Below, piece by piece: positions 27,979 through 61,933 of a DNA stretch of 64,000 nt (the first letter of the stretch is position 1; each line of letters starts with the position of its first letter). Both the position numbers and the translations under genes were made by a program. The stretch comes from Patescibacteria group bacterium (GTDB taxonomy: Bacteria > Patescibacteriota > Patescibacteriia > Buchananbacterales > UBA6539). Below the pieces are notes generated by a model, which saw nothing but the letters and a program-made list of their open reading frames with translations, was not told the DNA's origin and ran no database searches. The DNA is taken from positions 855,710 through 919,709 of the forward strand of contig JBAZSB010000001.1 of the NCBI GenBank assembly GCA_041662625.1. The letters are read 5' to 3'.

Positions 27979-28167
27979 TCAGCTAAATAGCTTAATGAGC
28001 AAAATCACAAATATGAACGTGGCTGACCCTACTCCAGCCAGAATGCCAGCCCATGCAGTCCAAGGATTACTTTTTCTGGCAATATAACCAAGACGGAACA
28101 TGAGAAGACTCGCAATCAACTCAAGAATCCATTGCCCGGTAGTCAATGGCAATAACTGATCTTCCAT
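27979..28167 (-). CDS. Small 2-TM membrane protein (62 aa), higher GC, strong SD
   Basis: AAGGAGGTG lies 7 nt upstream of the ATG. Two hydrophobic helices. Sits between two family-B repeat copies. Confidence 0.4.
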   Translation of the reverse strand: MEDQLLPLTTGQWILELIASLLMFRLGYIARKSNPWTAWAGILAGVGSATFIFVILLIKLFS

Positions 28168-34365: not shown

Positions 34366-34515
34366 ATGAAAGTAAGAAAGGGTGTGAAGGTAATCACCGG
34401 CATCACCTGGGTGGCTGCCCTGGTAATCGCTTCTGCGACCGGCTCGCTTTGGTGGATAGTCGGAACAGGCCTCGGGTCAATACCTGCGTACGCCATCTGC
34501 TTCCGCTGGAAGTAG
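34366..34515 (+). CDS. 49-aa hydrophobic peptide, high GC, canonical SD (not in ORF track)
   Basis: TTAGGAGGTCAACTTAGTGGAGGACCACAGATG. Encodes MKVRKGVKVITGITWVAALVIASATGSLWWIVGTGLGSIPAYAICFRWK. A TTGACT..TATAAA-like promoter lies upstream and a G-rich hairpin downstream. Confidence 0.35.
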   Translation: MKVRKGVKVITGITWVAALVIASATGSLWWIVGTGLGSIPAYAICFRWK

Positions 34516-36848: not shown

Positions 36849-37031
36849 TCAGAGCTTTTTCCCACAATGGGGACAAAATGTTCGCCCCCAGCTCCGAGAG
36901 TCATCATGACTGTCGCGACAACGCGATTCGATCGGAATTCTGTTGTTAGTCAACACTCCACATTTAGCACAGTACCTGACCGAACCCATACTTTTGTGGT
37001 CATTTGTGCATTGGCTGCCTTGTTCCAACAT
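36849..37031 (-). CDS. Small zinc-ribbon protein (60 aa), high GC, canonical SD
   Basis: AAGGAGG lies 8 nt upstream of the ATG at 37031; contains CAKCG ... CPHCGKK. Confidence 0.4.
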   Translation of the reverse strand: MLEQGSQCTNDHKSMGSVRYCAKCGVLTNNRIPIESRCRDSHDDSRSWGRTFCPHCGKKL

Positions 37032-43978: not shown

Positions 43979-44268
43979 AGGATTAAAGTTATTTATTAGG
44001 TATTACCTCTTTATTTTAGGGGGTTTTAGGGAGAGTGTCAATCTGGTAAAAATCGCAAATTACAAATCTCAAATTCCAAACAAATTCAAAATCTCAAATT
44101 CAAAATTCAAAACGTTAATTCCAAGAAGTTTGTAATTTTAGATTTTGAATATTGTAATTTGTTTGATATTTGTAATTTGGAATTTGGTGCTTATACTTTA
44201 ATTCCCTCTTGCCTTTTTAAATCACTCATGCTATCCTTATTTTTGTTACTTAATTAATTCAAATTACT

Positions 44269-44538: not shown

Positions 44539-44548
44539 AACGATAAAA

Positions 44549-44590
44549 ACATCGAGGTGCTCTGCTAGGACACCTCTATGTTTTTATCAC
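44549..44590. terminator. Bidirectional terminator between rpsT and holA
   Basis: AAAAACATCGAGGTG-ctctgctagga-CACCTCTATGTTTTT. Confidence 0.6.
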
Positions 44591-45562
44591 CAGCAAGTCA
44601 AATAAGACCTCAGGATCAATTTGGCTTGTTTTTATTTTATAGTCAATTGTAATCAGATTTTGGTAGATTTTTTTTAAAGTGGGTAATTGATGAAAGTGGG
44701 CCTGAGCCATGGTTTTTTTAATCACAAACGGATGAAGACCCAAGGTATAGGTTAGGCGGGAAGAAGAATAGCCGCTGCCATGGCTTTCCATAAAGCTTTT
44801 GACTAGCAGCAGATTTTTGAATTGCCAGGTGATTTTGGTTAAAAGTTCAGTTGGGCTGGTGCCACCCCGCAGCTGATCGGAGATTAATTTTAACGCCAAT
44901 TTTTTGTTTTTTTGGCCCAAAGCATCGGTGAGTTTAAAAATATCAGCCTCTAATTTATTTTTAACCAGTTCATTAACGTCCGCTACTGTAATCAGTTGAT
45001 TGGGGCGAAAAGCCAAAAGCTTATCAATTTCTGAATTCAGCTGCCATAAGTCATTGCCGGTTAGATCAGCCAAAAGATTTAAGGCAGAGGGTTCAATTTT
45101 ACCGCCCCGCTTTTTAATTTGTTCACTGGCAAAGCGGCAGACTTCTTGTTCAGTCAAAAGATCAAATTCCTGGGCATATTTTTCTTTTTTCAGCCGGCTG
45201 AAAAGCAGGTTGCTGCGTTTTTGGGAAATTTTGGAGCGTGATTTGCCCCCGTCCAGCCCGCTTTCCCAAAAAACAATAATTGTATCTTTTAAACCATTTT
45301 TGTCCAAAGCCTCAAGAATTTCTTTTTGAATTTTTTGGCCTTTGTTTTTGGAAATTAAGTCTTCAATAATTACCAGTCGTTTTTTGGCCAAAAAAGGAGG
45401 GGTCGAAACAGCCTTTTCAAACTCTGGCGTTTCTAGAGTATCCCCTTTTAAAATCTCAATATTCAAACTCGACTTATCAAGTTCTTTGACAAATTTTTCT
45501 TTAATCTCCTTAAGTTTTTGCCTAGAGCGGAAAGTGTCTGGGCCCCAAAGGAAGAAAATCAT
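44576..45562 (-). CDS. holA: DNA polymerase III delta subunit
   Basis: 328 aa, MIFFLWGPDTF..; the size and N-terminal pattern fit HolA. Confidence 0.55.
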   Translation of the reverse strand: MIFFLWGPDTFRSRQKLKEIKEKFVKELDKSSLNIEILKGDTLETPEFEKAVSTPPFLAKKRLVIIEDLISKNKGQKIQKEILEALDKNGLKDTIIVFWESGLDGGKSRSKISQKRSNLLFSRLKKEKYAQEFDLLTEQEVCRFASEQIKKRGGKIEPSALNLLADLTGNDLWQLNSEIDKLLAFRPNQLITVADVNELVKNKLEADIFKLTDALGQKNKKLALKLISDQLRGGTSPTELLTKITWQFKNLLLVKSFMESHGSGYSSSRLTYTLGLHPFVIKKTMAQAHFHQLPTLKKIYQNLITIDYKIKTSQIDPEVLFDLLVIKT

Positions 45563-45702
45563 GTAGAGTAGTTGGTAAGTTTATAAGTTGGTAAGTTGAA
45601 AAGTTGGCGTAGTTATTTTAACAAAGATTAAGTTTTTTAGAAAGGAAAGAGCGCCTCGGCTGGGGAAGTCGAGGCGCTCGGTTTCGATGTTGATGTCAGA
45701 GG

Positions 45703-47274
45703 TTACCGTCTGGCTTTGTGGGCAGAGGCAATCTCTTCCATACGGGCTCGCAGGGAGCCAGCATCCCGGGCCGGAGCGGCCTGGGAGCGTTCATTGTGGT
45801 GGGAGCGGCCGTTGCCGCCTTTGTGGTCCTGCCGTTGGGGGCGAGTCCGGGGGCGGTCGTCGTGATGCTGGTCGCGGCGTTGGCTGATTTTCACCTGGCG
45901 GCGAACAGCGCAGCAGCGGGGCAGACCCAGCCAGTACATCGGGCAGGTACCACCCGACTGGTCTGGCAGGCGGCACATCCTGCCAGTGGCGCACTGCTCT
46001 TGGCCCCGATGCCACTTGGTCTCATCCAAGGCCAAGGTGATTGCCGCCACGATCTCCTGGGTCGTCAGCAGGGTGGGCTCCACCTCTGGGTGGCTCAGGG
46101 AGCCATTCAGGAGGTTGATGCCGATTGTGATAACGATTGGACCCTTGCCGCGGCGGACCGTGATTTCCTTCTTGGGGTAATGCCAGGCCGGGGCGTCATC
46201 GATCGTGCCTTCGGCAGAGAGGTCTTGCCAGTCTTGGAAGGTGGCCTGCGTCATCTTGCCGGTCCTGATGCGGGCTGCAATCTCGTAGTAGCGGATGGCC
46301 CGGACTACGCTATCGAAGTCGATGTGGCGGTTCCGGCGGTAGAAGATCTGGGTCTGACCGCCTTGCCACCGCATTACCACGATATCGGCCTCGTCGCCAT
46401 ATTTGCTCATGGCCGCACTCGGCATCTGGGCTGCCAACTGCGCCAAAGGCGAGAGCTGATCGCCACGAGGCATGGGTTCGGGCAGCTCGATCACGACGAG
46501 CCGGTACATCAGTCGAACCCACTGGTCTTCACCCTTGGTACGCTTCTTGACCATTGGGCCGGGGATCTCGGCGACTTTGCTGGCCAACTCGCGGTACTTG
46601 CTGACCACTTGGGTCATGAAAGACTCTCGTTGACCGAGATGGGTTGTCAGTAGGAACCGGCCGATTCTGATCGCGGCCAGGGATCCGAACTGACGACCCG
46701 TGCCTTTGCCCATGGCACTCGGTCCAAGCGGATTGCGGTCGCCATTCCGGTCTTCCCACTGGATGTACCCCAGCATGCGGGTGAATACCGGGTCATCCTT
46801 GATACCAAGGATTCCCGCCATCAGACTGGTGGCGCACTCGTGGCGAAATCCGCTCTGGTGTTCGTCCACCGGTCCCTTGGCGATTCCGATCGGCAAAGTG
46901 CCTTCGTGGAGGTGGGCTTCGATGGGCCGACTGTCCGGGGTTTCTTGCGCCGTACCCCAGAATTGAATCAGGTCTGGATCCTTCCTGCCTTTTGTCTTCC
47001 CGCCATCATCAAGGGCCATTTTGATCAGCTTTTCGATGCCCGGGAATACCACCTCTCCCCGATGCTCAAGGAGCACAAGGGCTCCAACTTCGTCAAGGTG
47101 AGGAAAGTGGTGGGTGGCAAGCCGTTTTACCAGCTTACCTTTCCCGCTCGGGTGGGGGGGGAGGAGATCAAGCAAAGCTTGCATCCTTTTCACCTGCTCC
47201 TGATAAGCCGGTGGCTTGCCCCTCTCACTTGTTGCTGCCGGTGTTACTTTCGGTGCTGTGGTGCTTGCTACCAT
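45703..47274 (-). CDS. Hypothetical 523-aa protein on a high-GC (about 60%) foreign island
   Basis: SD AAAGGAGCGGAACC upstream of the ATG; a 10-bp GC hairpin terminator at 45649-45679; strong GC contrast with the flanks; basic disordered C-terminus. Confidence 0.5.
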   Translation of the reverse strand: MVASTTAPKVTPAATSERGKPPAYQEQVKRMQALLDLLPPHPSGKGKLVKRLATHHFPHLDEVGALVLLEHRGEVVFPGIEKLIKMALDDGGKTKGRKDPDLIQFWGTAQETPDSRPIEAHLHEGTLPIGIAKGPVDEHQSGFRHECATSLMAGILGIKDDPVFTRMLGYIQWEDRNGDRNPLGPSAMGKGTGRQFGSLAAIRIGRFLLTTHLGQRESFMTQVVSKYRELASKVAEIPGPMVKKRTKGEDQWVRLMYRLVVIELPEPMPRGDQLSPLAQLAAQMPSAAMSKYGDEADIVVMRWQGGQTQIFYRRNRHIDFDSVVRAIRYYEIAARIRTGKMTQATFQDWQDLSAEGTIDDAPAWHYPKKEITVRRGKGPIVITIGINLLNGSLSHPEVEPTLLTTQEIVAAITLALDETKWHRGQEQCATGRMCRLPDQSGGTCPMYWLGLPRCCAVRRQVKISQRRDQHHDDRPRTRPQRQDHKGGNGRSHHNERSQAAPARDAGSLRARMEEIASAHKARR

Positions 47275-47522
47275 GGTTCCGCTCCTTTGCCAGGCCTATC
47301 CTGGCCGGATCTTCTCTGAGACCCGTAATGTAGATTGAACGCAAAAAATGAGCTTACAGCCGCTCCAACATGATGGGTTGGTTCGGACTGGTCAAATAGA
47401 CTTTAAAGGATAGCATAATTGGGCTATTTTGTCAAGAAAAACCAAAAAATAGCCTAAATGGGCTATTCTTAAGTGGGTGGTTAATTGGTTAAGCTGGCAA
47501 AACTTGTTTTGTCCTAGGTATT

Positions 47523-50273
47523 TTAGATTTTTTTCAGTTCTCCCCAGTTCTCCCCGACTTCTACCTCCACGGCAATTGGTGCCCGCAGTTCATAGATTTT
47601 TTCCATAGTCTTTTGGACAAACTCAGCGACTTTTTTCAGATCATTTTGGGGCACTTCAAAAACCAGTTCATCATGAACTTGTAAAATCATTTTGGTTTTG
47701 GGAGAAATGGTTTCTAACTCTTGATGAATTTTAATCATGGCAAGTTTCATCAGATCAGCAGCCGTACCTTGAATAGGATGGTTAATAGCCATGCGTTCGG
47801 CCGAAGAAGCAATCGGCTGAATGTTGGAATTAATTTCTGGTAAATAGCGGCGGCGGCCAAAGAAAGTTTCTACATAACCTTTTTTTCTGGCTAATTCTTT
47901 GGTCTGTTCGAGGTAATTATAAATGTCGCGATGAATGGTAAAATAGCGATCAATGAAATCACGGGCTTGGCCATAAGTTATGCCGGTACCGGCAGCCAAA
48001 CCATGCGGTCCTTGGCCATAGATAATGCCAAAGTTTACCGCTTTTGCGGCATAGCGCATTTGTTTTGTGACTTTTTCTAAAGGTACCTGGTTGATTTCCG
48101 CTGCTGTTCGGGAATGGATATCCTCATTTTTTTTGAAGCTTTCAATCATTCTTTTGTCGTTGGCAAGCGAAGCAATAATCCGCAGTTCAATTTGGGAGTA
48201 ATCAGCTGCCAGAATTTTAAAGCCGCGTGGGGCCACAAAAGCTTTACGGATTTGCTGGCCCAGTTCGGTTCGGATCGGAATATTTTGTAAATTAGGTTCA
48301 GAAGAAGAAAGTCGGCCGGTGGCAGTTATCGTTTGGTTAAAGCTGGTGTGAATCCGGCCGGACAGATCAACCAGTTTAGGCAAAGCATCAAGGTAAGTTG
48401 ATTTCAGTTTAGCCAGTTCGCGGTATTTAATGATTAAATCAATAATTTTATGCTGGCCCCTTAATTTTTCCAGTTCATCGGCAGCGGTAGAAATTCCGGT
48501 TTTGGTGTGGCCAAGGCCTTGGGTGGAAATTTTTAATTTATTAAAAAGGATTTCTTTGAGTTGCAAGGGGGAGGCAATATTAAATTTGGTGCTGGCCAGC
48601 TGGTAAATCTTTTTTTCGAGTTCAACTAAATCCTGATCAACGTGGCGACTCATTTTTTTCAAAAAAGTGGTATCAACCAAAATGCCGTCTTTTTCCATTT
48701 GGGCTAAAACCGGAATTAAGGGCACTTCAATTTTTTGCAAAAGACCCAAATTGTTTTTTTCTTCGAGTTGCTTGGTTAAAGGTTTAACCAGGCGCCAGGT
48801 GAAATCAGCGTCTTCGCCAGAGTACCAAGCGACTTTTTCCAGCGGGACTTCTTTGAGAGTAATTTGATCCTTACCTTTTTTGCCGATTAGGTCGGTGATG
48901 GGCTGCATTTGGTAACCTAGTTCAGTGAAAACCAGCCCGTCTAAATTATGCTGCCGGCTGCCGGGGTTAATTAAGTAAGAGGCAATCATGGTGTCAAAAA
49001 CAACGCCTTTTAATTCCAGGCCAGCCGTCTGCAGGGTTTCCAGATCAAATTTAATATTATGCCCGACTTTTTTAATTTGGGGATCAGCTAAAATTGGTTT
49101 AATAATTTCTAGCCAGGCTCGTTGAGCCGGTAAATAGTAGGCAATCCCCGCTTGCCAGCAAAAACTGATGCCTAAAAGTTCGGCGTTAAACTGGTCCAGG
49201 CCGGAAGTTTCCGTATCCAAAGCGAAGATTTTTTGTTTTTTTAGTTCGCTAACAAATTTTTTGAAATCAGCTTCAGCTTTGATTAATTGGTAGTTGGCAT
49301 TTGCAGGCCTGGCGCCGCCATCGCGTTTTCCCGCTCGGTCTTGGTCACTAAATTCAAACCGGCCTTGGCCCGGGATGGTGCCTTTTTGCAAATCCTTTGG
49401 TAATTTGTTAATTAGAGACTTAAATTCTAATTCCTGAAAAAGCGGAATGACTTTACCCACGTCATAGGGGCGGACTTTGGCGTCTTCCAGCTTAAATTTG
49501 ATTGGCACGTCAAAAATCAGCTGGCTGAGCTTTTTTGACATCAAAGCTTCTTTTTTTTGCTCTGAAAGCAAAGCGCGGTAGCGGTCCGGGATTTTTTTTG
49601 CTTCTAAATTTTTATATAAATTATCCAAAGTTTTAAATTCTTTAAGCAGGGTAATTGCCCCTTTTTCACCAATTCCTTTAACCCCGGGAATGTTATCTGA
49701 GGGGTCGCCGCGCAAAGCTTTGTAATCAACCATTTGCTCTGGCGTCAAACCTTCAAACCGGCGTTTAACTTCGGCGATATCGTAAGTCAGGGTGTCGGAG
49801 ATTCCTTTATGCATGGTATAAACTTCAGTGTTTTGGTCAACCAGTTGTAAAGTGTCCAAGTCACCGGTGACAATAATAGTCAGTAAGTCTTGGACTGATT
49901 TATCTTTAACCAAAGTGGCAATCACATCATCAGCTTCAAAACCTTCTTTTTCGTAAATTGGCAGGTTAAAAGCTTTGACCACTTCTTTGACTTTAGGAAT
50001 TTGAGCGTAGAGTTCGTCGGGTTGTTTTATCCGGGTCGCTTTGTATTCTTTGTATTCTTTATGGCGAAATGTCGGGGCTTTCAAATCAAAAGTCACGGCT
50101 AAATAATCCGGCTTTAAATCTTTTAGGACTTTAAGCAGAATCATGGTAAAGCCGTAGACCGCATTAACAATTTCGCCGGACTTAGTCTGCAAAGTCGGTG
50201 GCAAAGCGTGCCAGGCGCGGTGGAGCAAAGCATTGCCATCAATGATGATAAATTTATCCTTTTTTGAGCTCAT
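47523..50273 (-). CDS. polA: DNA polymerase I (5'-3' exonuclease, 3'-5' exonuclease, polymerase)
   Basis: 916 aa; FIIIDGNALLHRAWHA, motif A DYSQIELR, motif C HDE. Confidence 0.9.
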   Translation of the reverse strand: MSSKKDKFIIIDGNALLHRAWHALPPTLQTKSGEIVNAVYGFTMILLKVLKDLKPDYLAVTFDLKAPTFRHKEYKEYKATRIKQPDELYAQIPKVKEVVKAFNLPIYEKEGFEADDVIATLVKDKSVQDLLTIIVTGDLDTLQLVDQNTEVYTMHKGISDTLTYDIAEVKRRFEGLTPEQMVDYKALRGDPSDNIPGVKGIGEKGAITLLKEFKTLDNLYKNLEAKKIPDRYRALLSEQKKEALMSKKLSQLIFDVPIKFKLEDAKVRPYDVGKVIPLFQELEFKSLINKLPKDLQKGTIPGQGRFEFSDQDRAGKRDGGARPANANYQLIKAEADFKKFVSELKKQKIFALDTETSGLDQFNAELLGISFCWQAGIAYYLPAQRAWLEIIKPILADPQIKKVGHNIKFDLETLQTAGLELKGVVFDTMIASYLINPGSRQHNLDGLVFTELGYQMQPITDLIGKKGKDQITLKEVPLEKVAWYSGEDADFTWRLVKPLTKQLEEKNNLGLLQKIEVPLIPVLAQMEKDGILVDTTFLKKMSRHVDQDLVELEKKIYQLASTKFNIASPLQLKEILFNKLKISTQGLGHTKTGISTAADELEKLRGQHKIIDLIIKYRELAKLKSTYLDALPKLVDLSGRIHTSFNQTITATGRLSSSEPNLQNIPIRTELGQQIRKAFVAPRGFKILAADYSQIELRIIASLANDKRMIESFKKNEDIHSRTAAEINQVPLEKVTKQMRYAAKAVNFGIIYGQGPHGLAAGTGITYGQARDFIDRYFTIHRDIYNYLEQTKELARKKGYVETFFGRRRYLPEINSNIQPIASSAERMAINHPIQGTAADLMKLAMIKIHQELETISPKTKMILQVHDELVFEVPQNDLKKVAEFVQKTMEKIYELRAPIAVEVEVGENWGELKKI

Positions 50274-50355
50274 AGTAAATTAAGCGAGTTCAGTAAATTA
50301 AGCGAGTTAAGTCCACTTAATTTACTGAACTCGCTGAACTCGCTTAATTTACTTA
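50274..50355. repeat. Composite palindromic repeat immediately upstream of the polA start
   Basis: Units A=AGTAAATTAA and B=GCGAGTTC are arranged A-B-A-B / gtccac / A'-B'-B'-A'. Confidence 0.6.
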
Positions 50356-50463
50356 TTATATTATACCATTTTCCTTTTAATAAATCCTTGGCTAAATAAA
50401 AACCCCTGGTGGGCTTGCGCACGCACCAGGAGGTGAATACAGTTCGAGTTCAGCGGACTTGGT

Positions 50464-50811
50464 TCAGCCCACTTGTCTAATCCTCCGCAGCAAAGCTTGG
50501 GGGTGATAGGGCTTCCAGACGATAGCCTGCACTCCGGCTTGCTGACAACGATCGGCCAGCGATCTATCCACCCCTTTATCTAGGGTGACAATCACTGGAT
50601 AGTTCGGCCAGGCTGCCTTGACTAGTTCCAGGTTACCAATACCTTGGTCATCCGGAACGTGTAGGACTATGACCGTTGGTCCGTCAGTCGTCAGGTTAAC
50701 ATCACTGACTTTCTGGTTCAGCGAAACCGGAAAACCCGCCGCCTGAAGGGTATTGGCCACGCCACCCAGACTAAGGCTTTCGCCAATGAACACTACTTTT
50801 GGTTTTTCCAT
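50464..50811 (-). CDS. Stand-alone degenerate receiver (REC-like) domain protein, high GC
   Basis: Matches the REC pattern around VIVLHVPDDQGIG and KPY, but the N-terminal acidic pair is replaced (FIGES). A terminator hairpin on the minus strand at 50405-50440. Confidence 0.4.
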   Translation of the reverse strand: MEKPKVVFIGESLSLGGVANTLQAAGFPVSLNQKVSDVNLTTDGPTVIVLHVPDDQGIGNLELVKAAWPNYPVIVTLDKGVDRSLADRCQQAGVQAIVWKPYHPQALLRRIRQVG

Positions 50812-50832
50812 CGCTGTTTCCTCCGCGATGAT

Positions 50833-51801
50833 TTAGTTCGGGATCAGCCCCAGTTCGTCCAGCACCCGCTTCAGAATCGCAGTGTTGGCCGGTTGCATCG
50901 GGACCAGCGGTAGTCTGAAACAGGCTTTCTCGATCACTTTCCTCTGGGCAAGAGCCTCTTTCACGCCCAACGGGTTGGTCTCGATGAAAAGACCTCCTTT
51001 ACCGAAGAGTGTTTCCAGTCGGTGGTGGATGGCAAAGCCAGCCGCTCGGTCATCACATATTTGGCCGTTAGCCGCAGCGAAGTGGTCAACCATAACCTTG
51101 ACTTGGTCAGTGATGCAGGATGCGACTGAAATCACACCGTTGCAGTCGCCAGTCGCCATGACTTGAGCCGTGATGCCGTCATCACCAGACCAGATGACAA
51201 AGTCCGCTGGGCATTGTTTCCGTAAGGCAGCGAAGCGAGCCGGGTCACCTTCAGCTTCTTTGTGGCCGATGTAATGGGGGAATTCCCGAGCCAGTTCGAC
51301 AATCACCTCGACTGGAATGGGTCCGCCGCCGGTCCGTGCCGAAACCGAGTAGCTGATGAAGGGGATACCGAGTTTGGCGATGGCTCGGAAATGCGCCAGC
51401 ACACCCTCCGGCGTGGGGTTGTTGTAGTACGGCTTTACGATCAAAACCGCATTGGCGCCAGCTTCGGCCGCTCTCCTGGTTAGCCAGATCGCCTCCTTGG
51501 TGCTGTTGGCACCAGTGCCAGCGATAACCGGAACGCGACCGTCGACCGTACCGATGGTCCAGGAAATGTAGGCGAGTTGTTCTTCATGACTCATGGTCGC
51601 CGGCTCGCCCGTGGTGCCGGCCGCCAGGATGGCGTCGTTGCGGCATGGGTCGATGAGATGGTCAATCAGTTTGGCCTGCTGCGCAAAATCGATTGGCGCA
51701 TCATCTGGTCCCAAGCCATTACTGGCATAGACCGTGGGCATTGCTGGGATACAGCGCAAAGCCCTGGCTGTCTTTCTGGTCAGTAGCTCATGTGGTTTCA
51801 T
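50833..51801 (-). CDS. DapA/NAL-family class I aldolase (dihydrodipicolinate-synthase-like), high GC
   Basis: AAGTTGE, YYN, IGHKEAEG (Schiff-base Lys region); GC about 58%. Confidence 0.6.
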   Translation of the reverse strand: MKPHELLTRKTARALRCIPAMPTVYASNGLGPDDAPIDFAQQAKLIDHLIDPCRNDAILAAGTTGEPATMSHEEQLAYISWTIGTVDGRVPVIAGTGANSTKEAIWLTRRAAEAGANAVLIVKPYYNNPTPEGVLAHFRAIAKLGIPFISYSVSARTGGGPIPVEVIVELAREFPHYIGHKEAEGDPARFAALRKQCPADFVIWSGDDGITAQVMATGDCNGVISVASCITDQVKVMVDHFAAANGQICDDRAAGFAIHHRLETLFGKGGLFIETNPLGVKEALAQRKVIEKACFRLPLVPMQPANTAILKRVLDELGLIPN

Positions 51802-51927
51802 CGTTTACTACTCCTTCTCGGTTACTGGGATTTACTCCCAATCTAAGTCCAATTGTCAATATTACCTGGTAATTTAGTTTAGACTATTTTGTTGTTTTTA
51901 GTCAATATTTCTGTTAAAATTAGATTA

Positions 51928-51993
51928 AGTAAATCAAGCTGGCAAGTTAGTAAGCAGCTTGATTTACTGATTAACTTGCTAGCTTGATTTACT
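51928..51993. repeat. Palindromic repeat cluster immediately upstream of smc
   Basis: AGTAAATCAAGCT / AGCTTGATTTACT is a perfect 13-bp inverted repeat, plus a third direct copy; related to the 50274 repeat units. Confidence 0.6.
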
Positions 51994-52000
51994 AACCAAA

Positions 52001-54373
52001 ATGTTTCTTCAGAAAATCGAAATTCACGGCTTCAAATCGTTTGCTCAAAAAACTATTTTAGAATTTCCACGGCCCGGCCAGGGCTGTCCTTTAGTTAGAA
52101 ACACCGGGCGAAGCGGCGAACCTAACCAGTTAGGCCAGGGACTGTGTGGTATCGCCTGTATTGTCGGTCCCAACGGTTCAGGCAAATCCAATATTGTCGA
52201 TTCCATCCGCTGGGTTTTGGGCGAGCAAAGTTTAAAAAGCCTGCGCGGCAAAAAATCCCAGGATATAATTTTTGCCGGTTCGGAAAAAAAGGCCAAACTT
52301 GGGTTAGCCCAGGTGTCTTTACATATCAATAATGAAGACGGCGCTATGCCGTTTGATTACCCGGAAGTGGTAATTTCCCGCAAACTTTACCGGAGCGGCG
52401 AAAGTGAATATTGGATCAATAAAAGCCGGGTGCGGCTCCAGGATATTTTACTTTTGGTGGCTAAAGCAAATTTTGGTCAGAAAAGTTACAGCATTGTTTC
52501 TCAGGGTTCGATTGATCAAGTGATTATGGCTAACCCCAATGAACGCAAAGATTATTTTGATGAAGCGGTTGGGGTCAAAGAGTTTCAGCTCAAGCGGGAC
52601 CAGTCTTTGAATAAATTGGAGAGTGCTTGGAACAATTTACGGCAAGTTGATGCTTTGTTAACCGAGATTAAACCCCGCTTAAATTCTTTAACGCGGCAGG
52701 TGCGCCGACTCGAAAAGCGGGAAAAGATTGAAGCCGAACTTAAAACCGTCCAGCAGCAATATTACGGCTGGCTTTGGCAGGAGTTGAATAATAAAATTAA
52801 AAAACTTAAGCCCGAGCTAGAAAACGGTGAATCAAACCTGGCCGCTTTTATCAAGGAATTAAAAGAAGTCCAGGCCCAGCTTCAGTCTTTGGAAAAAGAA
52901 GATTCAAGAAGTAAAATTTTTAATGACTTGCAGCAAAAATACCAGCAGGCTTTGGACCAAAAAAATAAACTGCGGGAAGAGCAGCTGATTTTACAAAATA
53001 AAATTGAACTAGCCCAGCAGCGCCTGATTGAAAAAGCCGTGCCAATGAGCCTAGCGGAAATCATTTCTAAATTAAAGGAAATTGATGAAACTGAGCAGAA
53101 GATTTTGGCTAATTTGGAGAGTAAAGAACCGGCTCAATTAGCTCAGCTTAAAGAAGATATCCGGGAGCTTGGTCGGCTGATTAAAGATTTGCGGCAGCAA
53201 TTAGAAGATCCCAAAATTAAAGAAAAAGTTAAAGCCGAAGTTGATCAAGATTTAGTTAACGATTTAAAAGAAGTGGAAACAGATTTAATAGACGTCACTA
53301 AACGACTGGAAACCAGTCGGCAAGATATTGAAAATTTCAATCAGCAAGAAGAAAAGAAAAAAGGTAAATTTTTTGAACTGCAGCGCCAAATTACCAGTAA
53401 ACAAAATCAGTATAATCAGTTGGCCGGCCAAGTTTCTGAACTGCGGGTGGAAATGGCTAAACTGGAAACTCGTCAGCAGGATTTAAAACAGGAAATCAAA
53501 GGTGAAATGCAGGATTTACAATGGCTCGATAGTTTTGCCGCTGGCAAAATCAATGAGCCAGAACTTCATACCGAAATGATCCATCTCAAGCGGCAGCTGG
53601 AATTGATTGGCGGAGTTGATCCCGAAACCGTCAAAGAGTATCAGGAAACCAAAGAGCGCCATGATTTCTTGGCCGAGCAAGCTGAAGATTTAAGGCAATC
53701 GATTAATTCTTTGGAAAAAGTCATCAATGATTTGGATGATAAAATCCAGCTTCAGTTTGATACGGCTTTTAAACACATTAATCAGGAATTTTCTAAATTC
53801 TTCAAGGTTTTATTTGGTGGCGGCAAGGCTGAGTTGTTCTTGATAAAAGAAGATTTAAGTAATGAGAGCGATCAGCGATCAGTAAGCAGCGATCAGCCAG
53901 CCGAAACCGAATCAGATGGTGAGCAACAGCCCGGCATTTTAGACAAGCTGATGGCAGCCGAAGAAAATTTAAGTCTCAAGAGATTTTTGAAAAAAAAGAC
54001 CGGCAAAGTCATTACTGGCATTGATATCACGGCAACTCCGCCGGGCAAAAAAGTTTCTTCAATTAATATGCTTTCCGGCGGTGAACGGTCGCTGGCTTCC
54101 ATTGCCTTGATTTGTGCGGTGATTGCCAATAACCCTTCACCCTTTGTGATTCTTGATGAAGTTGACGCGGCTTTAGATGAAGCCAATTCTCAGCGCTTTT
54201 CCCAAATCATCACTGAGCTTTCTCATAAAACTCAGTTTATTGTTATTACTCACAATCGTTCAACCATGCATCAGGCTAATATTTTGTATGGTGTGACTAT
54301 GGGCGAAGATGGGATTTCAAAACTAATCAGTTTGAAAATGGAAGAAGCTCAGAGGATGGTCAGGCCGAATTGA
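52001..54373 (+). CDS. smc: SMC-like chromosome-segregation ATPase (short, no obvious hinge)
   Basis: Walker A GPNGSGKSN; long coiled coil; C-terminal LSGGERSLASIAL signature and DEVDAALD Walker B. Confidence 0.7.
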   Translation: MFLQKIEIHGFKSFAQKTILEFPRPGQGCPLVRNTGRSGEPNQLGQGLCGIACIVGPNGSGKSNIVDSIRWVLGEQSLKSLRGKKSQDIIFAGSEKKAKLGLAQVSLHINNEDGAMPFDYPEVVISRKLYRSGESEYWINKSRVRLQDILLLVAKANFGQKSYSIVSQGSIDQVIMANPNERKDYFDEAVGVKEFQLKRDQSLNKLESAWNNLRQVDALLTEIKPRLNSLTRQVRRLEKREKIEAELKTVQQQYYGWLWQELNNKIKKLKPELENGESNLAAFIKELKEVQAQLQSLEKEDSRSKIFNDLQQKYQQALDQKNKLREEQLILQNKIELAQQRLIEKAVPMSLAEIISKLKEIDETEQKILANLESKEPAQLAQLKEDIRELGRLIKDLRQQLEDPKIKEKVKAEVDQDLVNDLKEVETDLIDVTKRLETSRQDIENFNQQEEKKKGKFFELQRQITSKQNQYNQLAGQVSELRVEMAKLETRQQDLKQEIKGEMQDLQWLDSFAAGKINEPELHTEMIHLKRQLELIGGVDPETVKEYQETKERHDFLAEQAEDLRQSINSLEKVINDLDDKIQLQFDTAFKHINQEFSKFFKVLFGGGKAELFLIKEDLSNESDQRSVSSDQPAETESDGEQQPGILDKLMAAEENLSLKRFLKKKTGKVITGIDITATPPGKKVSSINMLSGGERSLASIALICAVIANNPSPFVILDEVDAALDEANSQRFSQIITELSHKTQFIVITHNRSTMHQANILYGVTMGEDGISKLISLKMEEAQRMVRPN

Positions 54374-54440
54374 GGAAGAAGTGAATAAAGTTGATATAGC
54401 GATAAAGCGATAGAGTGAATAGAGCGATCGGCGATCAAGT

Positions 54441-54468
54441 CAGCTTTGTGGAGCTGACTTTTTGAAAA
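54441..54468 (+). terminator. Rho-independent terminator of smc
   Basis: GTCAGCT-ttgtgg-AGCTGAC followed by TTTTT. Confidence 0.7.
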
Positions 54469-54517
54469 AAGAAGTTGAAAATGGTTTTAAAAAAATAAGG
54501 CACCTCCGCAGAAGCGC

Positions 54518-54847
54518 CTATATTGGCTGGAGTTCGAAGACGAGAACACCGAGTCGACTAACATCACCCTTAAGTACTTCCCTCAGAGCAGCCAGAAGGG
54601 CATCCTGCTCCGTATCAGGATTAGGATAGATGCGTCGATAGTCCTCTGTTTTGAGGGCATCTTCTAGTGTGGGATACTCCCGGATGCCCGTGACTTTTCT
54701 TCCGTGTCTATTGTTAAAGATTATGGTATCTCCAACTTTAACCTCCCTGAAGATACGGTGTCCAAGTCGGATCTCCAAATCTTTGCTGCCGTCCTCGATG
54801 AACGGCAGCACAAGACGCATCACGAACCAACTGTGCGTTGCCGACAT
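54518..54847 (-). CDS. ASCH (PUA-like) domain protein, elevated GC
   Basis: 109 aa; SD AAGGAGG lies 8 nt upstream of the ATG. Confidence 0.4.
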   Translation of the reverse strand: MSATHSWFVMRLVLPFIEDGSKDLEIRLGHRIFREVKVGDTIIFNNRHGRKVTGIREYPTLEDALKTEDYRRIYPNPDTEQDALLAALREVLKGDVSRLGVLVFELQPI

Positions 54848-55146
54848 CTTAAGCCCTCCTTGTTGAAATGGATTGCAGTAAAAGAGATTATCATTTTTTA
54901 TCTAGGTTGTCAATTGAAATATGATTGGATCTTGACTATTCTATTGGGGTATGTAATAATGTCATTACTTAATTACCTGTGGTAATTAGGGCAAAGGTTG
55001 AAAAGCTCACCGCCCCGGCTTTAAATGGGACGACTAATTAATTCATAGGTTATTTTTTTTACGCAAATGTTGCAAATTAATGCGAATAACACCGATAAGC
55101 AATTCGCATAATTTGCAGGTATTCGTGTAATTAGCATCCTAAAACT

Positions 55147-55656
55147 ATGTTAAAAATCAGACTTGCCAGAATTGGCAAAAAGAAAAAACCAACTTACCGC
55201 TTTATTGTTTCCGAAGCCGGCCGAGATACTTATGGCAAAGCTTTGGAGATTTTGGGTTCTTATAATCCATTTTCCAAAGTCTGCGACGTCAAAAAAGACC
55301 GGATTTTGTACTGGATTTCTAAAGGTGCTCAAGCTTCACCAACCGCCCACAATCTGTTAGTTGACCAAAATGTGATTAGTGGTGCCAAACTAAAAGCTTC
55401 CAAGGGTGGCAAAAAGAAAGACGCGGAAGTAGCCGCGGAAAAAAACGCAGAAGGAAACGCGCCTTTCGACTCCGCTCAAGGCGCCTCGAGCGCAGTCGAG
55501 ATGGCGGAAAGTAAAGCTGAAGTTAAGGTAGCCGCGGAAACCGCGGAAAAGCCTGCCGAAAAAGTTGCAGAAAATACAGAAGTCAAAGTGGAAGAAAAGA
55601 AAGAAGAAAAGGTGGAAGAGAAAACTGAAGCTAAACCGGCTGAACCAGCAGCTTAG
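55147..55656 (+). CDS. rpsP: 30S ribosomal protein S16 with a KAE-rich C-terminal extension
   Basis: MLKIRLARIGKKKKPTYRFIVSE ... ILGSYNP ... ILYWISKGAQ. Confidence 0.9.
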   Translation: MLKIRLARIGKKKKPTYRFIVSEAGRDTYGKALEILGSYNPFSKVCDVKKDRILYWISKGAQASPTAHNLLVDQNVISGAKLKASKGGKKKDAEVAAEKNAEGNAPFDSAQGASSAVEMAESKAEVKVAAETAEKPAEKVAENTEVKVEEKKEEKVEEKTEAKPAEPAA

Positions 55657-55754
55657 CAAAAACATTTCATTAAATTGAAGGCGGCATCTTGCGATGCTGT
55701 CTTTTTTTAGTCTCGTTTGACATTATTATTAGTCGTGCTAAGATAGGAATATGA

Positions 55755-55877
55755 CCCGGTAGTGATCCCCCCACTTTTATATGTGGGATCACAAACGGGT
55801 GAGATATAAAAAATTATAATTAATATTATTAATAGATAACTCCCATAATTAAAAAAGTGGGGGGGACTACTACCGGG
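55755..55877. mobile_element. 123-bp MITE, family C copy A, with 24-bp TIRs and a TATGA target duplication
   Basis: CCCGGTAGTGATCCCCCCACTTTT ... AAAAGTGGGGGGGACTACTACCGGG; flanked by TATGA on both sides. Confidence 0.8.
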
Positions 55878-56003
55878 TATGAAAATTAACCTTAGCCAAA
55901 ATTCAAGCTGGTCAAATGGTTCAAGCTCAAGCAGTTCATCATGCTGCCGCTTTTTTGGTGGAAGGTTAATTTCTGGCTAAATCATAGACCAATTCAGATA
56001 GAA

Positions 56004-56033
56004 ACCAACCTTTCACCAGAAAGGTTGTTTGTT
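56004..56033 (+). terminator. Rho-independent terminator ahead of the serA cassette
   Basis: AACCTTTC-acca-GAAAGGTT followed by a T-run. Confidence 0.6.
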
Positions 56034-56076
56034 TTTTAGGGAGGAATAGTTCTTCAACAAACAAGGAGTTGGTGCC

Positions 56077-57384
56077 ATGACGAGAAGAATAGAAGGAAGG
56101 GCAGTATTACTGCTCGACAATATTGGCCCGGAGGCTGTACCAATCCTGGAGCAAGTGGGTGTCAGAGTCATTGATGCCAAGCGAGGTTTTGACAAAGATG
56201 CTGAAGCTGCTTTGTGTCAGTACATTACCGTGAATTTCCAAACCGGCGAATTAGCTGCCATCTGCCTGCGTAGTTCGACTACACTGGGAGCAGCGATCAT
56301 GCCGTTTCTGCGAGAAATGGGCGTCGAACTCATTGTCCGGTTTGGCTCAGGAACGGATAACATTGATGAGACAGCCGCCAGTGAAGTCGGGATCATCGTG
56401 GAGAACACGGCTGGCCAGAATGCCAATGGCGTAGCCGAGCTCGTGCCCGCTTTCATGGTTGCCTTGACTCGAAATGTTGATAAGGCCATCAAGGCGATGC
56501 TTGCCCGAGAAATATTGCCCAAGCTGTTGGCTGCTAGAGCACAGTTGAGCGATTGCCCGAGTGCTATTGATGAGCTGGTCACCCAGTTGCAAGGTTATGC
56601 TAAGGCTGAGAAGACCGGCTTTAAGGGTACCGAGATCGAAGGCAAGACGGTAGGCATCATCGGCTTGGGCCGAATTGGCTCAAAGGTAGCCAGAAAACTG
56701 CTCGGTATGGGGATGAAGGTTTTGGCTTATGACCCGAAATCCGAGCTGGAAATTACTGGTGTCACTCGAGTTGAACTGGCAACGCTTCTGGCCGAGTCAG
56801 ACTTCATCACCATCCACGCCAGTGGCAGCCAGCAGTTGATTGGTCAAGAAGAGATTCAGCAGATGGCAAAAAGACCATATCTGTTTAACCTCGCGCGGCG
56901 TGGGGTCGTGGATTTGGCGGCAGTTATGGCGGCACTGCAGGCCGATCAACTAGCCGGCTTTGCGTCAGACCTGGACGATCCGGCACATCCCGTATTTGGT
57001 TTGGCTCATACGATCATCACGCCTCACATCGGTGCCACCACTAAAGAGTCAGAAGCACGCTGTGCTCAAGTAGGTGCTCAACACGTGGTCGACTGGCTGA
57101 CTGACGGTTTCATCTGTGATGGCGTCAATATTCCGGACACGGCTATCAAGCGACGTCAGAATGGCCGGTTGGTGGTCTTGAACCGGAATGAGCCGGGAGC
57201 ACTTGGCGCAGTTACTGACTGCGTGAGAGATCGAGGCCTCAATATTCATTCCTTGGCGAATGAAGGTCGGGAACGGGGTGGACTGGCCTACACCGTCATG
57301 GACCTAGATGATCCTTTTGGTGAAGACCTGATTGCTGCCCTGGCAGCGTTGCCTCAGGTCGTGAGGGTTATTGGTTTGAAGTAA
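56077..57384 (+). CDS. serA: D-3-phosphoglycerate dehydrogenase-like 2-hydroxyacid dehydrogenase with a C-terminal ACT domain, high GC
   Basis: GIIGLGRIGSKVA NAD-binding motif, catalytic-domain pattern, C-terminal ACT (RLVVLNRNEPGALGAV); SD AAGGAG; GC about 55%. Confidence 0.75.
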   Translation: MTRRIEGRAVLLLDNIGPEAVPILEQVGVRVIDAKRGFDKDAEAALCQYITVNFQTGELAAICLRSSTTLGAAIMPFLREMGVELIVRFGSGTDNIDETAASEVGIIVENTAGQNANGVAELVPAFMVALTRNVDKAIKAMLAREILPKLLAARAQLSDCPSAIDELVTQLQGYAKAEKTGFKGTEIEGKTVGIIGLGRIGSKVARKLLGMGMKVLAYDPKSELEITGVTRVELATLLAESDFITIHASGSQQLIGQEEIQQMAKRPYLFNLARRGVVDLAAVMAALQADQLAGFASDLDDPAHPVFGLAHTIITPHIGATTKESEARCAQVGAQHVVDWLTDGFICDGVNIPDTAIKRRQNGRLVVLNRNEPGALGAVTDCVRDRGLNIHSLANEGRERGGLAYTVMDLDDPFGEDLIAALAALPQVVRVIGLK

Positions 57385-57411
57385 CCTGGCGTAAGCTAGA
57401 GTTCTTAGTTC

Positions 57412-57444
57412 GCCTCTGTCTTTAACCGGACAGAGGCATTTTTT
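57412..57444 (+). terminator. Rho-independent terminator of serA
   Basis: GCCTCTGTC-tttaaccg-GACAGAGGC followed by T7. Confidence 0.75.
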
Positions 57445-57517
57445 TAATATTTTTTTGCTTTAATATTTGTTTGTAATTTCCTGGATTAATTTTTTACAAA
57501 TTGGCAAGGCGGGTTGA

Positions 57518-57639
57518 CCCGGTAGTGATCCCCCCACTTTTATATGTGGGATCACAAACGGGTGAGATATAAAAAATTATAATTAATATTATTAATAGAT
57601 AACTCCCATAATTAAAAAAGTGGGGGGACTACTACCGGG
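57518..57639. mobile_element. MITE, family C copy B, with a TTGA target duplication
   Basis: Differs from copy A only by a one-base G-run length; flanked by (G)TTGA on both sides. Confidence 0.8.
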
Positions 57640-57668
57640 TTGACAAAGCTATTATTTGTTGTATAATA
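57640..57668 (+). promoter_or_regulatory. Sigma-70-like promoter of khpA
   Basis: TTGACA-17 bp-TATAAT; the -35 box incorporates the MITE target duplication. Confidence 0.55.
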
Positions 57669-57807
57669 TTTTAAGTTCCTCAAAACAGGAACTGGTACCA
57701 GACTGTTTTTCAGCAACCTCTCGGTTGCCTGGAAGGTCGGCAGACTGGTTGTTAATGTAAGTAATTCATTCCGACTTTCTTGAGTCGGAGTGACACGGTA
57801 TTGTTCT

Positions 57808-58122
57808 ATGGCAGCAAAAGAAGCTGATCAAGAGTTTGTCGAACACCTTGTCAAAGCCATTGTGGCTAACCCAAGTGATGTGAAGACAGAACGAACAGTT
57901 GACGAGATGGGAGTATTAATTACTCTTCATCTAAACCCATCAGACATGGGCTATGTCATTGGCCGCCAAGGCCAAACTGCTCGGGCAATCCGCACCCTCC
58001 TTAAAATTGTTGGTGCTAAACACAATGCCCGGGTCAACCTCAAAATTCATGAACCTGAAGGTTCAAGACGAGGCCGAGCTGCTGAAGCTGATACTTCAGT
58101 AGTCGACGATTTAAAAATCTAA
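57808..58122 (+). CDS. khpA: KH-domain RNA-binding protein (KhpA/YlqC, UPF0109)
   Basis: GYVIGRQGQTARAIRTLLKIVGAKHNARVNLKI; ATG at 57808 preferred (the track start at 57790 is GTG). Confidence 0.75.
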   Translation: MAAKEADQEFVEHLVKAIVANPSDVKTERTVDEMGVLITLHLNPSDMGYVIGRQGQTARAIRTLLKIVGAKHNARVNLKIHEPEGSRRGRAAEADTSVVDDLKI

Positions 58123-58321
58123 CTAGGATTTTCCCCCCTCACCTTCTGCACGTCATCAAACTAATTGACCAAGTTTTTCAAGAGTTTGCATCAATTAGTT
58201 TATGAAGATAATGATGGATAGAAGGTGAGGGGGGTTTGTTTACCAAAAGTTAGACAAAAGTGGCGATAATTGTTAAATTTAAGTATATAAGTCTATTTAA
58301 AATAGCTCTGTTTCATAGAAT

Positions 58322-59857
58322 ATGAAGGGAAATTTAAGCAAGGGACGGATAATTTTACTAGCCATGGTTTTAGGCTTTGTTTTTATATTTGTTTATAGTC
58401 CTCATTTTAGTTATCCTTTCCCGTTTCATATTGATGAGTGGCATCATATTTCTCAGTCAATTAGGCTAGGAAATTATGGTGATTATTTTCAAATGATGCA
58501 ACTTGAGAATGCCAGAAGGGCGCCCGGGATGGAGATTGGCTTTCATTTCTTTTTGTTTTTAATTTCTTGGTTATTTAATTTAGTTTCCACTTATCAATTT
58601 TTACCAGCATTTTGGGCAGTAATTTCCGCCCTAGTTTTGTTTTTTGTTGTTTACAAAAAAACCGATCGGAATTTTTTTCTGGCCTTGCTAGCTATTATTT
58701 TTTTTGGTTCGCTTAAATCCAACACCAATCTGACTGGACTGTGGTTTTTTACGCCCCTAACTTTTTCTATCCCCTTAATTTTTCTTTATTTTTATTTATT
58801 TAGTGAAGGCGTGGAAAAACAAAATAATAAACTAATTTTAGCCAGCCTGGCTTTGATGATAATTTTGATTCCAACCCATTCTATCTCTTTACTTTTTGCC
58901 CTGCCTGCCCTCATCATTTATTTAATTTTTAATTTTAAGTATGTTTTTAAAAATAGTCTTTTATTTTTGACCTTTTTGATCATCCCAATTTTTGGCGTTT
59001 TGTTTTACAAGTATATTTTGGATGTTCCGTGGGGGCAATTAATTAGCCATCTGGCGCAGACTTTGCAATTCCCGCATGGCTGGGGAGTATTAGAATTAAA
59101 AAATTCACCGTTCGAAATTTATAACTGGGCTGGTTATTTTTTTGCTTTGGTTGGTGTCGCCGCAATTGTTCTGAGCCATAAAACTAAAAAATACCTTATC
59201 TATCTCCTTTGGCCGGCAACTATTATTATCTCAATAATTATTTACCGGACAACTGGCATTTCTTATCTTAGCCCTTATCAAAGGAATTTTTATTATTTAG
59301 CCATTAGCCTGCCATTTTTAAGTGCCTTTGGTCTTTATACTTTTATCATTTTAACCAGAAAATATTTGCAGCGATTTGTTTTTCTTCCTCCCAACCAATC
59401 AGTTGGTGCTGTCACGATTAATATTAAAGTCAACCCCAAATATGAAAGGTTGACTCTCAATTTGGTTACTACCATTATTTTTTGTGTTGTTTTAATTCTA
59501 ACCTTTGCCAATTATTATTCTATCCCTAAGCAACTCGGGCTTTATCAAGTGATTGATTCTGACGATTATCAAGTCTTAACTTATTTGTCATCGTTGCCAA
59601 AAGGGAAAGTGATGTCTAATCCATTTCTGGCTTCAGCTATTTTCCCTGTCACCGGTAATGAAACTGTAGCGGATGTTAGTTTTTATGGTGATCGAAAAAT
59701 AATTGAGGAGTTTTTCTTATTTTCCGAGTGTCCAAGAAAAGATGAAATTATTAAGGAACAAAACGTCAGGTACATAATCTCTCCGGCTCCTTTAAGCTGT
59801 GATTTTAAGGTTATTTATGCCCAAAAGAATAATATTGTCTACGAAGTTGTGCAGTAA
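58322..59857 (+). CDS. Polytopic membrane protein (glycosylation-associated)
   Basis: 511 aa with more than 10 TM segments. Confidence 0.35.
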   Translation: MKGNLSKGRIILLAMVLGFVFIFVYSPHFSYPFPFHIDEWHHISQSIRLGNYGDYFQMMQLENARRAPGMEIGFHFFLFLISWLFNLVSTYQFLPAFWAVISALVLFFVVYKKTDRNFFLALLAIIFFGSLKSNTNLTGLWFFTPLTFSIPLIFLYFYLFSEGVEKQNNKLILASLALMIILIPTHSISLLFALPALIIYLIFNFKYVFKNSLLFLTFLIIPIFGVLFYKYILDVPWGQLISHLAQTLQFPHGWGVLELKNSPFEIYNWAGYFFALVGVAAIVLSHKTKKYLIYLLWPATIIISIIIYRTTGISYLSPYQRNFYYLAISLPFLSAFGLYTFIILTRKYLQRFVFLPPNQSVGAVTINIKVNPKYERLTLNLVTTIIFCVVLILTFANYYSIPKQLGLYQVIDSDDYQVLTYLSSLPKGKVMSNPFLASAIFPVTGNETVADVSFYGDRKIIEEFFLFSECPRKDEIIKEQNVRYIISPAPLSCDFKVIYAQKNNIVYEVVQ

Positions 59858-61921: not shown

Positions 61922-61933
61922 TGATTTTGGTCA

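Follow-up and report, generated by a model that had tools for sequence, protein, structure and literature searches.

The locus and its SD-led genes

We analysed a 64-kb window, that is, the whole stretch of 64,000 nucleotides at positions 855,710 to 919,709 of contig JBAZSB010000001.1 (assembly GCA_041662625.1), in which eight mostly GC-rich genes that are preceded by a strong Shine-Dalgarno (SD) sequence stand among 57 genes that are not, here called native. The mean GC content of the window is ~37%. Its genes include rnpA-yidD-yidC, dnaA-dnaN, rpsT, holA, polA, smc, rpsP, khpA, glycogen genes and one for a penicillin-binding protein, and the cumulative GC-skew minimum lies close to dnaA/dnaN. 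Pfam searches with the window proteins confirmed dnaA, dnaN, rnpA, yidC, rpsT and glgA; polA and smc were named via the Pfam matches of identical or orthologous genes in L001, L084 and L092 (L-numbers, L001-L094 etc., denote relatives' loci or contigs compared with the window). The polA product is 66-77% identical to those of a group of metagenome-assembled genomes (MAGs) that includes three Candidatus Buchananbacteria (RIFCSPHIGHO2_02_FULL_39_17, FULL_46_11b and FULL_56_16). On sequence grounds, the polA relatives, the oriC-side gene set and the GC skew together identify the window as part of a Candidatus Buchananbacteria chromosome (candidate phyla radiation, CPR, or Patescibacteria) around oriC.

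The SD-led genes and the signals that accompany them are listed below; GC3 is GC content at third codon positions.

45703..47274, minus strand: P523, 523 aa; SD AAAGGAG 7 nt upstream; GC 61%, GC3 71%
47275..47435, minus strand: P523 promoter-like site TTGACA-17-TATCCT and structured 5' leader ending AAAGGAG
45649..45680, minus strand: P523 terminator, a GC-rich hairpin with T-rich tail (by eye; not in the consensus scan)
50833..51801, minus strand: DapA/DHDPS-family lyase; SD AAGGAG 9 nt upstream; GC 57%; gene 1 of a two-gene operon
50464..50811, minus strand: REC-like protein, 115 aa; SD GGAGG 8 nt upstream; GC 53%; gene 2 of the DHDPS operon
50400..50416, minus strand: terminator-like hairpin 3' of REC, common to the DHDPS-REC operon
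54518..54847, minus strand: ASCH/PUA-like protein, 109 aa; SD AAGGAGG 7 nt upstream; GC 49%
54498..54519, minus strand: terminator-like hairpin 3' of ASCH
56077..57384, plus strand: SerA-like D-2-hydroxyacid dehydrogenase with ACT domain; SD AAGGAG 8 nt upstream; GC 53%
57412..57437, plus strand: terminator 3' of serA
27979..28167, minus strand: mini-ORF, 62 aa, hydrophobic (membrane-like, by eye); SD AAGGAGG 6 nt upstream; GC 43%
34366..34515, plus strand: mini-ORF, 49 aa, hydrophobic (membrane-like, by eye); SD GGAGG 7 nt upstream; GC 56%
36849..37031, minus strand: zinc-ribbon mini-ORF, 60 aa; SD AAGGAGG 8 nt upstream; GC 49%

Promoter-like sites lie upstream of P523, of ASCH and of the serA leader. 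The lyase scores 232.2 bits against TIGR00674 (DapA), above the equivalog cut-off of 206.15, and is a putative 4-hydroxy-tetrahydrodipicolinate synthase. The SerA-like protein carries the Pfam domains 2-Hacid_dh_C, 2-Hacid_dh and ACT and falls below the SerA equivalog cut-offs (TIGR01327, 208.6 vs 454; NF008759, 178.6 vs 404). The REC-like protein reaches 19.1 bits with PF00072, below the gathering threshold of 30.2, and its L091 orthologue has a Response_reg match. No Pfam match was obtained for the ASCH-like protein, whose matches in the PDB are the small Pyrococcus proteins 1xne (E = 4e-8) and 2z0t (E = 8e-6).

Two classes of translation starts

For 65 starts in the window, the region -20..-3 was scored by its duplex free energy (dG) with the canonical 16S tail ACCUCCUUU. 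Eight genes have a strong SD (dG -7.8 to -13 kcal/mol, 5-9 nt before the start), the remaining 57 are all weaker than -6 kcal/mol, and there are no intermediate scores. GC content is at least 0.47 in seven of the eight SD-led genes and in none of the 57 others (P = 1.1e-8, Fisher's exact test on the 2x2 table); seven of the eight are the GC-richest genes of the window. Among internal in-frame start codons taken as decoys, five of 592 reached the SD threshold. The native leaders are poor in G (2-10% over -20..-1) and rich in A (45-59% over -3..-11), with T at -1 in 59%, and a search in them for an alternative ribosome-binding motif returned only generic A/T-rich 5-mers, plus TTACT in six genes. 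In 14 Buchananbacteria loci taken together, an SD precedes 49 of 224 ORFs. The distribution of dG has two modes separated by a trough near -7, and decoys pass at a rate of ~1.4%. Two classes of start, SD-led and SD-less, therefore exist in the window and in the lineage. No published description of a CPR genome with two such SD/GC classes was found in a literature search.

The original prediction, made from the letters of the window, had described a low-GC class without SD (dnaA, dnaN, yidC, rnpA, rpsT, glgA, polA, smc) and eight ORFs of more than 50% GC with a near-perfect SD and mostly private terminators, placed at 45640-57444, and had proposed a systematic SD scan with a comparison to GC. 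Run on the window, that scan finds native genes SD-less (57 of 57 with dG > -6) and SD tracking high GC, and all eight named ORFs, and no others, score dG <= -7.8. The GC bound was set too high, as ASCH has 49% and two mini-ORFs 43% and 49%, and the three mini-ORFs fall outside the interval. Private terminators are present for serA, ASCH and P523 (by eye for the last), while DHDPS and REC share one.

Composition of the SD-led genes

In a 200-bp GC profile the SD-led genes appear as sharp islands at 45.64-47.4 kb (54-69%), 50.42-51.8 kb (53-59%) and 56.08-57.4 kb (52-56%), the ASCH-like gene forming a weaker bump of ~47% over a background of ~37%. All three of their codon positions are GC-rich. 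Their products are poor in the residues F, Y, M, I, N and K (FYMINK), the larger ones mostly having more Arg than Lys. The fraction of residues G, A, R and P (GARP) is.26-.34 in SD-led vs.16-.29 in native proteins, and R/(R+K) is.45-.69 vs a native median of ~.33, with overlap at the edges in both measures. As in genomic islands, GC content, codon usage and amino-acid usage are thus unlike those of the host.

Across the 14 loci the GC3 of SD-led genes is.56 +/-.12 irrespective of host GC3 (.32-.75), exceeding that of the host in low-GC genomes and lying below it in L010. This composition indicates, as judged from base and residue frequencies, a long history in GC-richer backgrounds. GC3 has remained at.60-.73 in five of seven lineages of DHDPS, with core genes that differ by 0.8 to saturated synonymous substitutions per site (dS), and a single ancient import with subsequent neutral amelioration does not fit this. 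The high GC could stem from circulation among Buchananbacteria of 37-56% GC, or from selection.

The same families in the same slots

The window proteins were compared with relatives' polA loci and with contigs that carry homologues of the island proteins. In more than 12 assemblies of other Buchananbacteria, the SD-led families are found in matching slots of the core gene order. The smc-polA interval contains DHDPS, alone or accompanied by REC, in L002, L003, L006, L007, L008, L084, L085 and L094; in L010 and L087, whose loci do not include smc, DHDPS is upstream of polA. REC-like genes adjoin DHDPS in L084, L087 and L091. The polA-holA interval contains a P523 homologue in L004, L006, L007, L008, L010 and L084, while L082 has one immediately upstream of holA. 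SerA-like genes occupy the rpsP-khpA interval of L007 and L094; in L085 one adjoins rpsP where the contig ends. Between smc and rpsP, the window has ASCH, and L084 and L004 have an SD-led UbiA gene. The DHDPS genes of one slot fall into at least three groups with mutual identity of 35% or less. Synteny of these genes across the lineage is thus established. Between 44 and 58 kb of the window, all non-shadow ORFs of 100 aa or more are accounted for by identified core genes and SD-led genes.

L087 (1-9375) carries an 8.5-kb stretch of SD-led genes of 51-60% GC directly upstream of a polA fragment of 39% GC; they encode a REC-like protein, DHDPS, two membrane-like proteins, Band7, a 252-aa protein and a HATPase_c_3 protein.

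Retention of the SD

The SD core is kept in all 25 orthologues examined from five families, 5-11 nt and mostly 8-9 nt before the start, where chance would give an SD in ~1% per site. It is kept in DHDPS genes whose GC3 is at host level (.35 in L085,.40 in L002). In L010, whose host has 56% GC, the cassettes, as we call the SD-led units, keep their SD, and core genes with GC3 of.76-.85 have none. Retention extends to another CPR lineage: on L089 a relative of P523 combines GC3 of.87 with AAGGAGG in a backbone of ~50% GC whose genes are SD-less. Conservation of the SD, even at host-like GC3 and in a 56% GC host, is thus observed, and it points to a host ribosome that very probably retains a usable anti-SD at the 16S rRNA 3' end and reads the SD. 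The question raised in the original prediction, how such genes are translated in an SD-independent host, is then probably moot. The window contains no rRNA gene, and no 16S 3' end was found among 95 relatives' loci (L013 has 23S and one tRNA).

The P523 family and its leader

P523 carries the motifs HxxPHLDE and GGGxFDEH and a C-terminal 4-Cys knuckle, and has no Pfam or NCBIfam match. In an alignment of 42 family members, D137, H139 and D175 do not vary, H55, H59 and D61 hardly vary, and four Cys are conserved. No profile match was found in the PDB; the AF2 model (pLDDT 87) gave weak Foldseek matches to DhhP and RecJ2 (E = 0.009-0.04, TM <= 0.2), on which a DHH-phosphoesterase-like fold can be proposed with weak confidence. 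Among 1.84 billion representative proteins there are ~500 relatives at E <= 1e-3, none with a Pfam domain, and all named members are Patescibacteria, including Blackburnbacteria. The SD-supported ATG gives 523 aa, and this start and the leader are common to the L084 and L082 orthologues. The NCBI annotation of the identical gene (WC675_04520) starts 30 codons downstream and yields 493 aa. Start calling in this genome is probably troubled by the two signal classes.

The 5' leader of P523, ~125-150 nt (47275-47402, minus strand), is 90% identical to that of L084 (14093-14222), and the coding sequences are only ~45% identical in nucleotides and 40% in amino acids, with.63 nonsynonymous substitutions per site (dN); identity breaks exactly at the start codon. 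The consensus fold of the leaders of the window, L084 and L082 (1-137) has 33 pairs, eight of them with compensatory changes, and forms a hairpin that abuts the SD and a GCUC/GAGC pairing that overlaps it. By its predicted fold it is a candidate translational control leader. Searches of Rfam type with the leaders and the hairpins described below matched no known RNA family, only spurious miRNA-type hairpins, and a metagenome scan with the leader motif returned three contigs already known and one chance match.

Two short members of the family, L004_329 (15321-16310, 329 aa) and L085_324 (14293-15267, 324 aa), adjoin holA. Both have low, host-like GC and no SD, and therefore the gene can switch class; they may represent SD-led genes that became domesticated.

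Divergence and turnover

The closest relatives of the window DHDPS form a graded series (82, 77, 70, 61, 59, 56 and 53% identity) whose visible contexts are all Buchananbacteria; beyond these, ordinary DapA proteins follow at 43-47%. For the SerA-like protein there are ten relatives at 42-48% identity, below which come generic SerA proteins at 31-38%. A close donor outside CPR was not found for DHDPS, SerA-like or P523. A phage vehicle was considered and dropped, as P523 and DHDPS have no relative in the viral contigs searched.

L084, the closest relative of the window, has core genes of 80-95% nucleotide identity (dS.64-1.1, dN.04-.09), while its cassettes differ by dS.92-1.7 and dN.21-.63, a dS at least that of the core. 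It lacks serA, has ASCH swapped for UbiA, and shares DHDPS and REC that are 63-75% identical to those of the window (dN.21 and.36). Over smc codons 1-95, the window is closer to L084 (amino-acid identity.95, dS.35) than to L090 (.87, dS 1.0). The order is reversed for DHDPS, with amino-acid identities of.82 to L090,.77 to L091 and.71 to L084, and REC is closer to that of L091 (.78, dS.40) than to that of L084 (.54, dS.92). L084 is closest to the window by seven core genes, yet the window DHDPS is nearer L090 and L091, and its REC nearer L091. At strain level, the polA product of L001 is identical to that of the window (two synonymous nucleotide differences), and positions 1-230 of L001 (window 50666-50895), at the REC/DHDPS boundary, are 10% divergent, reaching 20% in the 63 bp of DHDPS covered before the contig ends. 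The divergent end suggests a different cassette allele in the L001 population; no closer allele for it was found among the relatives' loci.

Turnover, and discordance in divergence between cassettes and core, are accordingly present. The gain or loss of serA and ASCH, the break in P523, the discordance of DHDPS and REC and the L001 end therefore speak for allele replacement and gain and loss at fixed slots, with the conserved flanks as likely recombination substrates.

Evaluation of alternative explanations

The explanation that we favour, with moderate confidence, is a lineage-wide pool of self-contained, exchangeable SD-led cassettes in an SD-independent core genome. It needs to be held cautiously, as several points weigh against it. 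Within one subclade, DHDPS identities are partly in line with the core tree, and the DHDPS of L090 diverges about as much as its smc; much of the inheritance is therefore vertical. The discordance described above consists of pairwise divergences among few taxa, with one core fragment of 95 codons. Recombination tracts, integrases or other transfer machinery were not identified. For the persistent high GC, selection is an alternative cause to circulation. The mini-ORFs have no detected homologues in the relatives' loci compared and therefore may not all be genes. Finally, since the CCTCCT anti-SD was detected in only 48% of Parcubacteria 16S genes, as found by Tsurumaki et al. 2022 (PMC9297842), we infer its presence here.

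The first alternative is that the SD-led genes are old residents under regulation, with GC and SD held by selection and little lateral exchange; examples would be structured GC-rich mRNAs that need SD anchoring, or SD-hiding leaders that gate translation. We regard this as unlikely. In its favour are the conserved slots, the partial congruence of the DHDPS matrix with polA and smc, the persistence of GC3 of.60-.73 in lineages with saturated core dS, and the conserved P523 leader with its compensatory pairs and its pairing over the SD, to which L004_329 and L085_324 add that a change of class is possible. It does not sit well with DHDPS and REC divergences that are discordant with core genes, or with a P523 gene in which identity falls abruptly from 90% in the leader to 45% as soon as the coding sequence begins. 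Close relatives also differ in the presence of serA and in ASCH vs UbiA, an allele break is seen between strains in L001, and the DHDPS genes of one slot belong to at least three subfamilies at 35% identity or less.

A second alternative, the original prediction read to the letter, takes these genes as foreign, recently transferred from GC-rich, SD-dependent, non-CPR donors into a host unable to use the SD, and as not yet ameliorated. The word foreign holds in so far as the composition is non-native in codon positions and amino acids and native genes lack an SD; DHDPS and SerA-like are of metabolic kind, with ordinary bacterial DapA and SerA as their next-nearest relatives, and serA and ASCH are missing from L084. 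Recent import, on the other hand, is quite improbable. There is no donor-like homologue (DHDPS at most 47% outside Buchananbacteria, SerA-like at most 48% everywhere), and the named P523-family members are only Patescibacteria. Orthologues occupy the same slots across lineages with core dS of 0.8 to saturated, cassette dS is at least that of the core, and all 25 orthologues, GC-ameliorated copies included, have kept the SD.

Very improbable, in our judgement, is a third alternative, in which the host 16S has lost its anti-SD and AAGGAGG is read otherwise, or the genes are not translated by standard ribosomes of the host. The absence of the SD from all 57 native genes, those for ribosomal proteins included, would fit such a loss. 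That all 25 orthologues carry, at canonical spacing, a motif exactly complementary to CCUCCU is hard to explain otherwise than by pairing. We take Buchananbacteria to belong on the side of Falkowbacteria and Uhrbacteria and not in the uL1-lacking group. Loss of the anti-SD is reported in a subgroup of Parcubacteria and overlaps the subgroup that lacks uL1, in a main text that makes no mention of Buchananbacteria (PMC9297842).

Lastly, an assembly or binning artefact that inserted high-GC pieces of another organism into a low-GC contig, to which the abrupt GC boundaries within intergenic regions might point, has next to no probability, as the junctions are reproduced at 99.5-100% identity by three independent assemblies of different source (L001, JGI 3300014208, equal to window 43760-50895 at 99.55% and spanning the rpsT/holA/P523/polA/REC junctions; L092, ENA ERZ27249449, MEGAHIT, equal to window 50077-63501 at 99.95% and spanning polA/REC/DHDPS/smc/ASCH/rpsP/serA/khpA; and L093, Logan SRR18595301, 100% identical across serA) and the same architecture recurs in more than 12 MAGs of different studies.

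Hairpin elements and other repeats

Two direct copies of a 127-nt long-hairpin element (dG -53.5 kcal/mol, z -6.8), 99% identical to each other, have serA between them.

55752..55878, plus strand: copy 1, between the rpsP terminator and the serA leader
57515..57641, plus strand: copy 2, directly before the khpA promoter TTGACA-16-TATAAT

In L092, which is 99.95% identical to the window, serA is present and copy 2 is missing, with only a 21-nt arm-like remnant. The element is therefore polymorphic between strains, like a miniature inverted-repeat transposable element (MITE) or a repetitive extragenic palindromic (REP) element, and the direct repeats were ruled out as borders of a serA cassette, given that L092 keeps serA without copy 2. 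The element was not found in the relatives' loci.

A second hairpin element of ~150 nt (ends CTAACACGTTTTATGTGG ... CACATAAAACGGTAACGTT) occurs at 27761-27893 and 28258-28410 in copies that are 75% identical. These bracket the mini-ORF at 27979-28167, the same arrangement of hairpin, SD-led gene and hairpin as at serA. AT-rich palindromes of AGTAAATTAAGCGAGTTCAG-type units lie at 50274-50353 and 51928-51993, directly 5' of the polA and smc start codons, and the motif also stands 5' of smc in L090; such palindromes may be native promoter or leader modules. At 90-3078 there is an array of seven tandem paralogues of ~140 aa each, with signal peptides and direct-repeat families D1-D3; the one paralogue tested matches the Pfam family T4SS_pilin (PF18895).

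Relation to known systems

The cassettes resemble genomic islets and hot spots in their atypical GC and codon usage, fixed slots, allele replacement, presence and absence, and raised dN. Patchiness is seen for serA and ASCH, while DHDPS, P523 and SerA-like keep their slots across the lineage. The cassettes differ from islets in that the units comprise one or two genes, the same families recur in a given slot throughout a candidate phylum, and class matches the type of translation signal perfectly. The mobility signatures of genomic islands (integrase or transposase, tRNA target, att-type repeats) were not found, and the window has no tRNA.

In Bacteroidota initiation is SD-independent on A-rich leaders, and few genes keep an SD. 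The likeness extends to SD-less core genes with A-rich, G-poor leaders, found here for 57 of 57, and to a strong SD in a minority; here, however, that minority consists of GC-rich accessory cassettes and not of a specific regulated housekeeping gene, and the lineage is CPR. Parcubacteria without an anti-SD are also CPR, with essentially no SD on native genes. That work dealt with rRNA and not with mRNA leaders (PMC9297842), whereas the conserved cassette SDs reported here argue for a retained anti-SD.

Integron attC sites consist of R''-L''...L'-R' boxes with G/TTRRRY and bound promoterless cassettes of the same orientation. With integron cassettes, and with clusters of attC sites lacking integrases (CALIN), the present genes share compact ORF units, an SD of their own and host-unlike composition, and serA and one mini-ORF each have a long imperfect hairpin on either side, in direct copies. 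An integrase was not seen; the units have their own promoter-like sites and terminators and are scattered on both strands. The hairpins are unlike each other, one copy is polymorphic independently of serA, and inspection of their box layout showed no attC arrangement of R and L boxes.

A proposed model of two modes of initiation

On the explanation by an exchangeable cassette pool, translation of core genes would begin with no SD pairing, on leaders rich in A and depleted of G, and ~12% of genes would be self-contained cassettes in fixed slots between core genes. In the larger cassettes a promoter-like site, a leader, an SD 5-11 nt before the start, an ORF that is GC-rich in codon and amino-acid usage and a terminator can be made out. 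Together they would form a flexible gene pool of the lineage, in which loss, gain and replacement of alleles outpace the evolution of the core. The most likely route of replacement is homologous recombination within the conserved flanks. As a result of moving between genomes of 37-56% GC, cassettes would keep a composition near the pool average (GC3 ~.56) and would not take on that of the host. Selection would keep the SD, very probably read by a ribosome with a usable anti-SD, and the cell would have two modes of initiation, SD-independent for the core and, if the SD functions as supposed, SD-dependent for the cassettes.

A bolder version, which we put forward as speculative and rather doubtful, is that two translation regimes coexist, an SD-less core and a mobile GC-rich pool that is read only via the SD, swapped at fixed slots and actively held off the GC equilibrium of its host. 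Access to the anti-SD, or SD-hiding leaders, could then switch the whole accessory genome, in Buchananbacteria and perhaps in many CPR, L089 being alike.

Gene origin and mode of translation, which are usually merged, become separable questions here. The presence of an SD predicts membership of the flexible genome almost perfectly in this lineage, across hosts of 37-56% GC, and also in contig L089. If the explanation is true, these genomes would offer a natural system for selective SD use in SD-poor bacteria and a sequence marker of accessory genes in CPR genomes, and gene callers or start models trained on one class would misplace the starts of the other. They would also make a case against simple amelioration clocks and would be relevant to the anti-SD loss reported for Parcubacteria.

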